Shown piece after piece: positions 24,701 to 27,407 of a stretch of 64,000 nt of DNA. The stretch spans positions 67,903 to 131,902 of the forward strand of contig DATCLS010000102.1 of assembly GCA_036563805.1 (NCBI GenBank). Reading direction: 5' to 3'. The position numbers and the translations under genes are program-made. Each line of letters opens with the position of its first letter. Position 1 is the stretch's first letter. This DNA is from Acidimicrobiales bacterium (GTDB lineage Bacteria; Actinomycetota; Acidimicrobiia; Acidimicrobiales; VFJN01). A model generated the notes under the pieces. It saw only the letters and a program-made list of their open reading frames with translations. It ran no database searches and was not told the origin of the DNA.

Positions 24701-27407
24701 CCACGTGGCCACAGACGAGGAGCGCCGCGACCCCGAGCGCCTGGCCGCCCTGCTGCGCGACGCCGGCATCGATTTCGTCGAGGTGACGCCGTCGCACTTC
24801 GGCCAGCTGGCCGCGGCCGGGCTGCTGGCGGACGGCCGCCTGCCCCTCGCCCTGCTGGGCGTGGGCGGCGAGGCGGTGCCCCGCGCCCAGTGGGCCGAGC
24901 TGGCCGGGCTGGACGGCACCGAGGCCTACAACTTCTACGGGCCGACCGAGTGCACGGTCGACACCGTGGTGGCCCGCGTGGCCGGCAGCGACCGGCCCGT
25001 GATCGGCCGCCCGGTCGCCAACACGACCGCCCACGTGCTCGACGGCTCGCTGGCCCCGGTGCCGCCCGGGGTGCCGGGCGAGCTCTACCTGGGCGGCGAC
25101 CAGCTGGCCCGCGGCTACCTCGGGCGCCCCGACCTGACCGCCGAGCGGTTCGTGGCCGACCCGCTCGGCCCGCCCGGCGCCCGGCTGTACCGGACCGGCG
25201 ACGTCGTGCGGCGCCTGCCCGACGGCACGCTCGAGTTCGTCGGGCGGGCCGACGACCAGGTCAAGGTGCGCGGCTACCGGATCGAGCTGGGCGACGTCGA
25301 GGCGGCGCTGGCGGGCCACCCGGCGGTCGGCCAGGTGGCGGTGACCGCCCGTCGCGACGGCGGCCTGACCCGCCTCGTGGCCTACGTCGTGCCCGACCCC
25401 GCCCGGCCGCCCGGGCGGCCCGACCCCGACCGGGACGGGGCGGACGCCGCGGACGGCGACGACCTGGCCCGCCAGCTGCGGGCCCACGCCGCCGGCCTCC
25501 TGCCCGACTACATGGTCCCGGCCGCGGTCGTCGTCCTCGACCGGCTGCCGCTCACCCCCAACGGCAAGCTCGACCGCGAGGCCCTGCCGGCGCCCGACTT
25601 CGCCGCCCTGGCCGGCGGCGCCCCGCCCCGCGACGACCGCGAGGCCGTGCTGGCGAGCCTGTTCGCCCAGGCCCTGGGTCTACCCCGGGTCGGCATCGAC
25701 GACAGCTTCTTCGACCTGGGCGGCGACAGCATCGTCTCGATGCAGCTGGTGAGCCTGGCCCGGGAGGCGGGCCTGGTCTTCACACCCCGGGACGTGTTCC
25801 GGCACGAGACCGTCGCCGCCCTCGCCCCCGTCGTGCGGCGCGCTGCGGACCTGGCCGGCGACGAGGCCGGGGCCGGCGTCGGCGAGCTCGAGCCCACCCC
25901 GATCATCCACTGGCTCCGCGAGCTGGGCGGGCCCATCGGAGGCTTCCACCAGGTCATGGTGCTCCGGGCCCCGGCCGGCCTCCGGGAGGCCACGCTCGTC
26001 GCCGCGCTCCAGGCCGTGCTCGACCGCCACGACGTCCTCCGGTCCCGCCTGCGGCGCACGCGAGCCGACGGCGACGGGGCCGAGCGGTGGACGCTCGAGG
26101 TGGCCCCGCCCGGGGCGGTCGACGCCGCCCAGTGCGTGACCCGGGTGGACGTGGCCGGCCGCCCCGACGACGCGGTGGCCACCGAGGCGACGGCCCGGTG
26201 GACCGCCGCCATGGGCGAGCTCGACCCCGACGCCGGCGCCATGGTCCGGGCCGTCTGGCTCGACGCCGGCCCCGACCGCCAGGGGCGGCTCATGGTGCTC
26301 GCCCACCACCTGGTGACCGACGGCGTGTCGTGGCGGATCCTCGTGCCCGACCTGGCGGCGGCGTGGGCGGCCGCGGACGCCGGCGTCGCCCCCGAGCTGG
26401 CGCCGGTGGGCACGTCGTTCCGGCGGTGGTCGCAGGCGCTGCACGCGGCCGCGGCGGCGCCGGAGCGGACGGCCGAGCTGCCGTTCTGGGAGGCGATGCT
26501 GGCGGCCCCGGTCGTGCCGATCGGCGCTCGGCCGGTCGACCCGGCCCGCGACACGGTGGCCACCGAGCAGGCCCTGACCGTGCAAATCCCCCGGGAGGCG
26601 ACGCGTCGCCTGCTCACCCGGGTGCCAGCCCGGTACGCGGCGACGATGGACGAGGTGCTGCTGGCGGCGCTGGCCGCCGCGGTCGGCGCCTGGCACCGGG
26701 CGGCCGGCCGGGTCGGCGGCGACGAGGGCGCGCCCGTGCTCGTCGACCTCGAGGGCCACGGCCGCGAGGAGGCGGTCGCCGGGGTCGACCTGTCCCGCAC
26801 GGTCGGCTGGTTCACCAGCCTGTGCCCGGTGCGCCTCGACGCCGGTCCCCTCGACTGGGACGGGTTCCGCGCCGGCGGGCCCGAGGTCGACCGGGTCGTC
26901 GCCCGGGTCCAGGCCGCCCTGCGGGCGCTGCCCGACGGCGGCATCGGCTACGGCCTGCTCCGCTACCTCAACCCCGAGACCGCACCCCGCCTGGCCGGGC
27001 GGGCCCGGCCCCAGGTGCTGTTCAACTACCTGGGCCGGTTCGCGGCTGCCGGGCCGAGCGCCGGCGGCCGCGAGGGTGGCGCCGGCGAGGGTGGCGCCGA
27101 CCCCGGGGCCGACCACGAGGCGGCCGACGGCGGGGCCGGCGACTGGACCCCCGCCCCGGAGGCCGCCGCGTTCGGCGGAGGCGCCGACCCCGGCATGCCG
27201 CTGTCCCGCCCCATCGAGATCAACGCCGTCACCCTCGACGGCCCCGACGGCCCGGAGCTCCACGCCACCTGGTCGTGGCCCGACGGCGTTCTGACCGAGG
27301 ACGAGGTCCGGGCGCTGGCCGACCTGTGGCTGGCCGCCGTCGACGGCCTCGTCGCCCGAGCCCACAGCCCCGATCCCACCACCCACCGGACAGGTGCACA
27401 GCCATGA
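3588..27407 (+). CDS. Hexamodular nonribosomal peptide synthetase, 7,939 aa
   Basis: The track ORF 3096-27407 is trimmed to GTG 3588 (codon 165). That is where condensation-domain sequence begins and where the start overlaps the AT stop as GTGA. It contains 6 C, 5 A, 6 T, 3 E-type and 1 MT domains (see sub-features). Stop TGA 27405-27407. Confidence 0.95.
6852..10070 (+). other. NRPS module 2: C2 - A2(Ser-type) - T2
   Basis: C2 starts [14 protein letters not shown], with HHILADG at 7272-7292. A2 has [42 protein letters not shown] and [11 protein letters not shown] (Lys codon 9774-9776). The hand-extracted code DVWHISLVDK is close to the EntF Ser code. T2 Ser codon is 9951-9953. Confidence 0.8.
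10100..11400 (+). other. Degenerate (probably inactive) epimerization domain E1*
   Basis: It aligns with E2/E3 of the same protein, but [12 protein letters not shown] reads [12 protein letters not shown] (His 10545-10547, Pro 10548-10550). EGHGRE is replaced by ERPDRP, TVGW(L/F)T by TVGPLA, and (V/F)NYLG by LYRRRP. Confidence 0.7.
11475..15990 (+). other. NRPS module 3: C3 (His motif HLxxxDG) - A3 interrupted by N-MT - T3
   Basis: C3 starts [13 protein letters not shown]; its His motif reads [11 protein letters not shown] (11883-11915), so the second His is Leu (codon 11892-11894). A3 has [36 protein letters not shown] and [11 protein letters not shown]; the code is DMENLGLINK. T3 GGHS Ser codon is 15867-15869. 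Confidence 0.8.
14350..15600 (+). other. N-methyltransferase domain inserted between A8 and A9 of A3
   Basis: Motifs are [35 protein letters not shown] motif [11 protein letters not shown] (14532-14564) and [12 protein letters not shown]. The A domain resumes afterwards with [14 protein letters not shown] and [11 protein letters not shown]. Confidence 0.8.
16026..19240 (+). other. NRPS module 4: C4 (LCL-type) - A4(Ser) - T4
   Basis: C4 has [12 protein letters not shown], with HHVATDE at 16476-16496. A4 has [30 protein letters not shown] and [13 protein letters not shown]. The code DVWHFSLVDK is the EntF-type Ser code as I recall it. T4 GGHS Ser codon is 19119-19121. Confidence 0.8.
19270..22400 (+). 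other. NRPS module 5: C5 - T5 - E2, no adenylation domain
   Basis: C5 has [12 protein letters not shown], with HHVATDE at 19701-19721. A Pro/Ala/Gly linker of only ~55 aa follows, then T5 ([11 protein letters not shown], Ser codon 20871-20873). E2 has intact motifs (PVVHWL, HH at 21486-21491, EGHGREE, TVGWLT, VNYLG). No AMP-binding core motif occurs between C5 and T5. Confidence 0.8.
22575..27404 (+). other. NRPS module 6: C6 - A6 - T6 - terminal E-type domain (no TE/R)
   Basis: C6 starts [12 protein letters not shown], with HHIVVDG at 22989-23009. A6 has [30 protein letters not shown] and [11 protein letters not shown]; the code DAQEGGFVDK is unassigned. T6 Ser codon is 25728-25730. The terminal domain has PIIHWL, HHLVTDG (26304-26324), EGHGREE, TVGWFT and FNYLG. 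The protein ends ~40 aa after this domain. Confidence 0.8.

Follow-up and report, generated by a model that had tools for sequence, protein, structure and literature searches.

The hydroxamate siderophores closest to the system described here are made by non-ribosomal peptide synthetases (NRPSs) whose last module closes with an epimerization (E) domain. The albachelin synthetase has the order C/A/T-C/ASer/T/E-C/AOrn/MT/T-C/ASer/T-C/ASer/T-C/A/T/E (Komaki and co-workers, PMC4599437), where C, A, T and MT stand for condensation, adenylation, carrier and methyltransferase domains, and its product is composed of N-acetyl-hfOrn, three serines, an N-methylated hydroxy-ornithine (N-methyl-hOrn) and a C-terminal cyclic N-hydroxy-ornithine (PMC6151521). 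Scabichelin-like lines also end in ...-C/A/T/E, and the module of scabichelin that loads N5-hydroxy-ornithine (hOrn) carries the specificity code DAWEGGLVDK (Komaki and co-workers, PMC7692728). Here we analyse a six-module NRPS gene in a 64,000-nucleotide stretch of an Acidimicrobiales bacterium (contig DATCLS010000102.1; this whole stretch is called the window below), whose protein ends in a carrier domain and a complete E domain with no thioesterase (TE) domain behind it. We propose, with a probability of about 0.6, that the terminal hOrn is epimerized and that the chain then releases itself as a six-membered N-hydroxy-lactam, that is, cyclic N-hydroxy-ornithine, so that no thioesterase would be needed.

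Motif and self-BLAST mapping gives the module order C1-A1-T1 / C2-A2-T2-E2 / C3-A3(MT)-T3 / C4-A4-T4 / C5-T5-E5 / C6-A6-T6-E6, with six T cores and five A domains in the open reading frame (ORF). The Pfam families present in the protein are Condensation, AMP-binding, AMP-binding_C and PP-binding, together with a single methyltransferase family. The features of the synthetase are given here, with residues counted from GTG 3096 of the longest ORF:

3588..27407, + strand: six-module NRPS gene, start uncertain (GTG 3096, GTG 3588 or about 3735)
12825..15854, + strand: A3 with an embedded N-methyltransferase, code DMENLGLINK, N5-hydroxy-ornithine type
19323..22409, + strand: module 5 (C-T-E, no A domain), which immediately precedes the terminal module; the arrangement is also found in orthologues
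22560..23927, + strand: C6, which groups with C2 and C3 (47–49% identity) and is DCL-like, the type that follows an E domain
23964..25595, + strand: A6, the last adenylation domain (FDASWQP...), code DAWEGGFVDK
25650..25835, + strand: T6 carrier domain, LGGDSI core at 25716-25733
25863..27365, + strand: terminal E domain (residues ~7590-8090), all seven E motifs intact
27366..27407, + strand: 13-residue non-conserved tail and stop, without a GGxTPSD docking/linker segment

The original prediction, that the assembly line finishes with T6 followed by a complete E-type domain, holds. The motifs lie where it had placed them (HHLVTDG 26304-26324, EGHGRE 26751-26768, TVGWFT 26799-26816 and FNYLG 27021-27035), and the RTVGWFT and GGIGYG motifs are likewise intact. 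The best PDB matches of the terminal domain are all E domains, namely those of PvdL (8e-42), TycA (2e-38) and GrsA (5e-30), with TycB and BacC also among them, whereas C-type chains match at only about 1e-5; the domain is a genuine E domain, closer to characterised E domains than to C, Cy or X domains. The roughly 40 residues that had been counted as lying beyond it turn out to be mostly its own last helix, which in the alignment with other E domains ends 13 residues before the C-terminus. T6 has the LGGDSI core, as do T2 and T5, both of which precede an E domain, and T1, whose module has none; T3 and T4 read LGGHSL. Peptidyl carrier proteins (PCPs) that partner E domains are said, in work ascribed to Linne and co-workers in 2001, to carry a GGDSI-type core.

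The absence of a TE domain, a reductase (R) domain or a stand-alone thioesterase gene, noted earlier from the sequence, was borne out by motif, Pfam and tblastn searches. The motif search found no GxSxG TE motif and no R-domain motif in the NRPS protein; no TE, R or Ct domain was seen in the six frames of the 64 kb window, and no match to the Pfam Thioesterase family among the 39 neighbouring genes scanned. When six TE domains were compared by tblastn with all six frames of the window, only the T-domain part of one query matched. These searches have an upstream limit of 574 bp: the ENA contig examined (ERZ4232226, NODE_220, 106,645 bp) has its first base just 574 bp before the window, and the upstream half of the cluster is therefore out of view. 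A protein index lists identical ketosynthase (KS) and GNAT proteins on a contig of 173,782 bp.

The same ending recurs in relatives of the synthetase. Two of these, L015 and L017, are long metagenomic contigs reached through KS homologues; L012 and L013 (fragments) and L011 (Streptomyces boncukensis) came from a protein search with the last module, which returned only proteins shorter than about 2,800 residues. L015 and L017 carry the same cluster as the window, with NRPSs of 7,382 and 7,907 residues, and the fragments L012 and L013 match the last module at 60–69% identity. All five synthetases end in A(FDASWQP)-T(LGGDSI)-E and a stop codon, with a short unconserved tail and no TE. The genes that come after them differ, and in none of the five is the next gene an NRPS gene:

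L015: phosphopantetheinyl transferase, then KS
L017: KS
L012: GNAT acyltransferase
L013: helix-turn-helix regulator
L011: MbtH

The terminal E domain is 68–72% identical to those of its three closest orthologues, 60% to that of L012 and 56% to that of L011, at least as well conserved as the internal E5 (60%) and the C domains (66–68%) in the same comparison. Because it is conserved and its motifs are intact, while the E domain of module 2 in the same protein has decayed, it appears to be kept by selection as a catalyst. By sequence it resembles ordinary epimerases: internal E domains of Streptomyces, which are followed by C-A, share 53% identity with it, and it does not form a distinct subtype; when the six hOrn-ending terminal E domains were set against 81 other E domains, only S7779 and D7932 (both outside the catalytic motifs) were specific to the group. 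The Streptomyces E domains, the sole matches in a species-genome scan with the terminal E, were considered as markers of orthologous clusters and rejected as paralogues, being internal with C-A after them. Just after FNYLGRF, at 27042-27143 (+), the terminal E domain also bears an insertion of about 26 residues rich in Gly, Ala and Asp, absent or different in the orthologues, which looks like a variable surface loop.

The adenylation codes, taken from alignment to a GrsA reference segment whose numbering is self-consistent with the published code, are given here with the predicted substrates:

A1: DVFALGCVNK, no substrate assigned
A2: DVWHISLVDK, Ser
A3: DMENLGLINK (DMWNLGLINK in a gapped alignment), hOrn type, with N-methyltransferase
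A4: DVWHFSLVDK, Ser
A6: DAWEGGFVDK, hOrn type

Nine of the ten positions of the A6 code are identical to the scabichelin terminal-module code for hOrn, and A6 is accordingly predicted, from the code, to be specific for N5-hydroxy-ornithine. The synthetase is thus predicted to build a tris-hydroxamate siderophore of the albachelin/scabichelin type with the order acyl-X1, Ser, N-methyl-hOrn, Ser, D-Ser, hOrn.

Based on these domains, release would proceed in three steps. The hexapeptidyl chain would be completed on T6, with C6-A6-T6-E loading N5-hydroxy-ornithine; E6 would then equilibrate the alpha-carbon of the T6-bound terminal hOrn; finally, the free delta-N-hydroxy amine of this residue would attack its own thioester, and the six-membered cyclic hydroxamate so formed would release the chain and supply the third ligand for iron. 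The first two steps follow from the domain identities found here, whereas the cyclizing release is suggested by the hOrn-type code, by the products albachelin, scabichelin and kasichelin, and by analogy with nocobactin NbtE. The D configuration of the last residue, and whether ring closure would be spontaneous or helped by a protein, are likewise matters of inference. An intramolecular attack by a hydroxylamine has been proposed for qinichelin and scabichelin (qinichelin preprint). The proposal is supported by the intact terminal E domain, the albachelin-like order, the hOrn-type codes, the TE-less relatives and the siderophore genes in the window and in related clusters. Among the routes listed in the original prediction, self-release as a cyclic hydroxamate is thus the best supported, by the hOrn code, the albachelin architecture, NbtE and kasichelin, whereas the accompanying idea that the E fold assists it found no support.

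The likeness to the albachelin NRPS of Amycolatopsis alba extends over the whole protein: six modules in one polypeptide, a starter C domain, Ser and an E domain in module 2, an MT-bearing Orn-type module 3, Ser in module 4 and a C-A-T-E end without TE. The window NRPS differs in that its module 5 lacks an A domain and has an extra E domain and in that its module-2 E is degenerate; in place of the acetyl group of albachelin, the KS, acyl carrier protein (ACP) and acyltransferase (AT) genes and the desaturase gene of the window suggest a longer acyl group. The scabichelin-type NRPSs (Streptomyces scabies; Phytohabitans nrps-3) share the C/A/T/E last module, the hOrn code, the lack of a TE and the cyclic C-terminal hOrn, but they are pentapeptide lines starting with A/MT/T, and the window code is one position off theirs (L322F). 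The albachelin and scabichelin synthetases were compared through published domain strings and codes.

The kasichelin synthetase KasE/G/H ends in C-A-PCP-E without TE, its product carries a D-configured terminal cyclic N-OH-Orn, its cluster has no AmcB homologue, and the paper leaves the release mechanism unassigned (PMC12305651); kasichelin differs in that it is a small siderophore of the phenolate-oxazoline class, assembled by three distinct NRPS proteins. Its D-Orn, at a terminus built by the same C-A-PCP-E ending, is the one available analogy for the predicted epimerase activity on the tethered C-terminal residue here. In nocobactin biosynthesis, the terminal C-A-T-E of NbtE is followed by an N-hydroxy-caprolactam (PMC7413640). 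NbtE and mycobactin MbtF resemble the window NRPS in leading from C-A-T-E to a cyclic hydroxamate, and their clusters have an MbtK-type acyltransferase and an ACP-based lipid supply; they differ in using lysine, which gives a seven-membered ring, and in belonging to mixed NRPS-PKS (polyketide synthase) lines with a salicylate cap.

A T-E ending without TE is therefore usual for iron-chelator synthetases of the albachelin, scabichelin and nocobactin types and is already described also for kasichelin and mycobactin; the rarity that the original prediction implied gives way to a known, recurrent design. To our knowledge, release by TE-less hydroxamate siderophore synthetases has never been shown biochemically, and the literature variously invokes spontaneous cyclization, an α/β-hydrolase or the last C domain. 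To these cases the window adds a lineage that is well conserved and, it appears, uncultured. Selection clearly acts on its E terminus, and those parts of the relatives that can be seen have no conserved helper enzyme, which makes module 6 (C-A-T-E) a reasonable test object.

Several points weigh against self-release. The product of the window cluster is a prediction from the genes, and the substrate assignments come from comparing the A codes with codes quoted in papers and with the GrsA reference segment. The cluster is cut by the contig end, which leaves its N-hydroxylase, its MbtH and any helper hydrolase out of view, and a release enzyme may thus exist. A related cluster, L015, has an α/β-hydrolase adjoining the gene of a siderophore-interacting reductase. 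Moreover, the literature on TE-less hydroxamate NRPSs more often invokes a hydrolase acting in trans (AmcB, DafK, CchJ, CahG).

Such a hydrolase, encoded outside the window and performing a cyclizing or hydrolytic release while the terminal E domain only sets stereochemistry, is the likeliest of the alternatives, and we consider it rather unlikely. Lines such as amychelin AmcG/AmcB, coelichelin CchH/CchJ and cahuitamycin CahD/CahG are, like the window NRPS, TE-less actinomycete hydroxamate siderophore synthetases, and their release is ascribed to an α/β-hydrolase encoded in the cluster; none is visible near the window NRPS. The published assignments name AmcB, DafK, a possible AmcB homologue in madurastatin, CahG and CchJ, so that the route has been proposed for amychelin, chlorodactyloferrin, madurastatin, cahuitamycin and coelichelin, although the role of AmcB is itself a prediction and the kasichelin cluster has the same terminus with no AmcB homologue. 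The truncation of the window cluster upstream leaves room for such an enzyme, and the L015 gene (18999-19829) is a candidate for an AmcB-like release or recycling enzyme: it encodes 276 residues with the nucleophile elbow GHSWGG and overlaps the stop of the siderophore-interacting reductase gene, as in an operon. However, neither the window nor the 21 kb of L017 contains a homologue of it, and the sole α/β-hydrolase of the window, of the epoxide-hydrolase type, lies 26 kb from the NRPS. The original suggestion of a trans-acting enzyme therefore survives for an α/β-hydrolase outside the window and fails for the candidate of the penicillin-binding-protein (PBP) type or β-lactamase fold within it. 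This candidate is the following gene:

34704-35909, + strand: β-lactamase-fold serine hydrolase (Pfam Beta-lactamase PF00144, 3e-36), 7.3 kb downstream of the NRPS

That this protein is a SurE-like PBP-type thioesterase which off-loads a D-configured C-terminus is hardly credible, even though it matches PF00144 so close to an E-terminated NRPS and SurE (6ksu) is among its PDB matches. The surugamide-type lines served by such enzymes (SurE, PenA; PMC9113502) do end in T-E with no TE in cis, but there a cytoplasmic cyclase of the SurE family makes head-to-tail macrolactams. The match to SurE is weak (1e-6), the best being Lsa45 (4e-22) and NylB-type hydrolases; the N-terminus, MAHSSRRRWLAVALALAAFGAAAC, is a lipoprotein export signal, which places the enzyme outside the cytoplasm; and no related locus has a homologue, the gene lying beyond the FUR gene, where the conserved genes end or already outside them. 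It was accordingly rejected as an off-loader.

Two further explanations place release in the terminal E domain or beyond the protein. The E fold might itself catalyse or template the lactam-forming release, as epimerase and cyclase in one, an idea we find improbable. It is strictly kept in every hOrn-ending relative and is at least as conserved as the other domains, and condensation-superfamily domains act as terminal cyclases in other systems, as the CT domains of fungi do; yet it cannot be told from a canonical E domain, being 53% identical to an internal one of Streptomyces with C-A behind it, its two group-specific residues fall in no catalytic motif, and plain epimerase activity suffices to explain the D-configured terminal Orn of kasichelin. 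Were this doubtful reading true, the domain would position the delta-N-hydroxy amine and would replace the TE functionally across the whole class of siderophores ending in cyclic hydroxy-ornithine or hydroxy-lysine, and it would do so here, again improbably, in a stereochemically unusual setting, in which E2 has decayed, C2 resembles a dual E/C domain and module 5 is a C-T-E module that lacks A. Very improbable, in our judgement, is a hand-over of the chain from the terminal T-E to a C-starting NRPS encoded elsewhere, in the manner of TycA and TycB. Many actinobacterial NRPS proteins do end in E and pass the chain to the next subunit, and the upstream part of the window cluster is out of view. 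Among the 44 E-terminated matches to the last module, however, 37 carry the tail GGxTPSD[LM]SLVxLSQxxIDxL, which is also the sequence of the internal E-to-C linkers of the window NRPS, and the last A codes of these 37 are unrelated; the window NRPS (13 residues past the E fold) and the five hOrn-ending relatives stop before this segment. The rule that a tail-less protein is a true terminus is not absolute, since one protein (P0016) lacks the tail although the next gene, which overlaps its own, encodes a C-starting NRPS. Six modules in one protein already make a full albachelin-type hexapeptide line, no NRPS gene follows the synthetase in L015, L017, L011 or L013, the gene overlapping the NRPS stop encodes a binding lipoprotein, and no C-starting NRPS gene was found in the 36 kb downstream within the window. 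The transfer to another NRPS that had been offered as an option is thus disfavoured. As for the off-loading enzymes and C-starting partners which the original prediction proposed to look for, the window holds neither a downstream C-starting NRPS nor a fitting PBP-type enzyme, and an α/β-hydrolase in a related cluster is confined to L015.

Other hydrolases of the window were also considered and set aside. A GDSL lipase (42828-43856), an M13 peptidase and an amidohydrolase lie 15–30 kb off, and the epoxide-hydrolase-type α/β-hydrolase (53745-54878) about 26 kb off; all have unrelated genes around them and no counterpart in the related loci. The rejected β-lactamase-fold gene adjoins the gene of a FUR-family regulator and could act on the siderophore outside the cell.

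The genes around the NRPS fit a siderophore cluster:

1..1308, + strand: 3' part of an ABC exporter gene, the examined contig ending 574 bp further upstream
1362..3591, + strand: stand-alone KS, ACP and AT genes, directly upstream of the NRPS and kept beside orthologous NRPSs
27404..28477, + strand: siderophore-type periplasmic binding lipoprotein (Peripla_BP_2), whose ATG overlaps the NRPS stop (ATGA)
28580-30507, - strand: two adjacent HpcH/HpaI aldolase or citrate-lyase-beta-like genes, between the binding-protein and phosphopantetheinyl transferase genes
30561..31448, - strand: phosphopantetheinyl transferase
31470..32108, + strand: Acetyltransf_8 (IucB/MbtK-type) N-hydroxy-amine acyltransferase, conserved in related clusters
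33099-34073, + strand: fatty-acid desaturase
34181-34618: FUR-family regulator

Exporter, binding lipoprotein, FUR regulator, phosphopantetheinyl transferase, acyltransferase, KS-ACP-AT set and desaturase all agree with this function. A lipid branch dedicated to the pathway, like that of the mycobactin mbt-2 locus, is suggested by the KS-ACP-AT set, the MbtK/IucB-type acyltransferase and the desaturase; the first of these recurs next to the orthologous NRPSs, joined in L015 and L017 by a ketoreductase (KR) gene. The clusters of L015 and L017 carry MbtH, a Lys/Orn N-oxygenase, a siderophore-interacting reductase and two ABC exporters; neither an ornithine N-monooxygenase nor an MbtH gene was found in the window, where the contig examined ends 574 bp upstream. 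The HpcH/HpaI-like pair has no evident role in a hydroxamate peptide pathway, and no homologue of it was seen in the related loci. Three further loci from a long-read metagenome (L014, L018 and L019), whose genes are fragmented by frameshifts, were used for one purpose, to locate the GNAT gene at the edge of the cluster.

Among named relatives, those nearest to the KS and GNAT proteins belong to metagenome-assembled genomes labelled Acidimicrobiales (P0177, P0237), and nearly all close homologues come from soil metagenomes. The species-genome scan turned up no cultured close relative; Nocardia, Rhodococcus and Mycolicibacterium have KS proteins that are more remotely related (about 40%).

The start of the NRPS gene bears on the completeness of C1. 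In the window, whose G+C content is about 77%, the single ORF 3096..27407 (+) dominates, and the protein has about 7,900–8,100 residues depending on the start, with the stop codon at 27405-27407. The codon-position GC profile favours a start at GTG 3588, where the gene would overlap the stop of the AT gene upstream. GTG 3096 gives the longest ORF, but that ORF runs across the AT gene (2809-3591), which lies in a different frame and has the better coding statistics. The public gene call begins near 3735 and would truncate C1, whereas GTG 3588 keeps it full-length.

What is less ordinary about the locus is the C-T-E module that lacks an A domain, the decay of E2, the resemblance of C2 to dual E/C domains and the lipid branch of KS-ACP-AT/MbtK type. 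A C-T-E module without an A domain is common to L012, L015 and L017. C5 is 65% identical to C4, so that module 5 seems to have arisen by duplication of module 4 and loss of the A domain; A4 or A2 would presumably provide its serine. The E domain of module 2 (10071-11345, +) is degenerate, with AHPLAVDA in place of HHxxxDG, DVERPDR in place of EGHGRE, RTVGPLA in place of RTVGWFT and FNYLG gone, and is probably inactive, although the downstream C3 groups with post-E (DCL-like) C domains. C2 (6795-8174, +) has extra residues inserted directly after its LSPLQEGL motif, which recall the second His motif found in dual E/C domains, and the T1 core near 6612 is of the E-partner type LGGDSI, although there is no E domain in module 1; this dual E/C-like C2 may be what epimerizes residue 1. 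At the active site of C3 (~11900-11925, +), RHLLLWDG replaces HHxxxDG, which keeps the catalytic second His but not the first.

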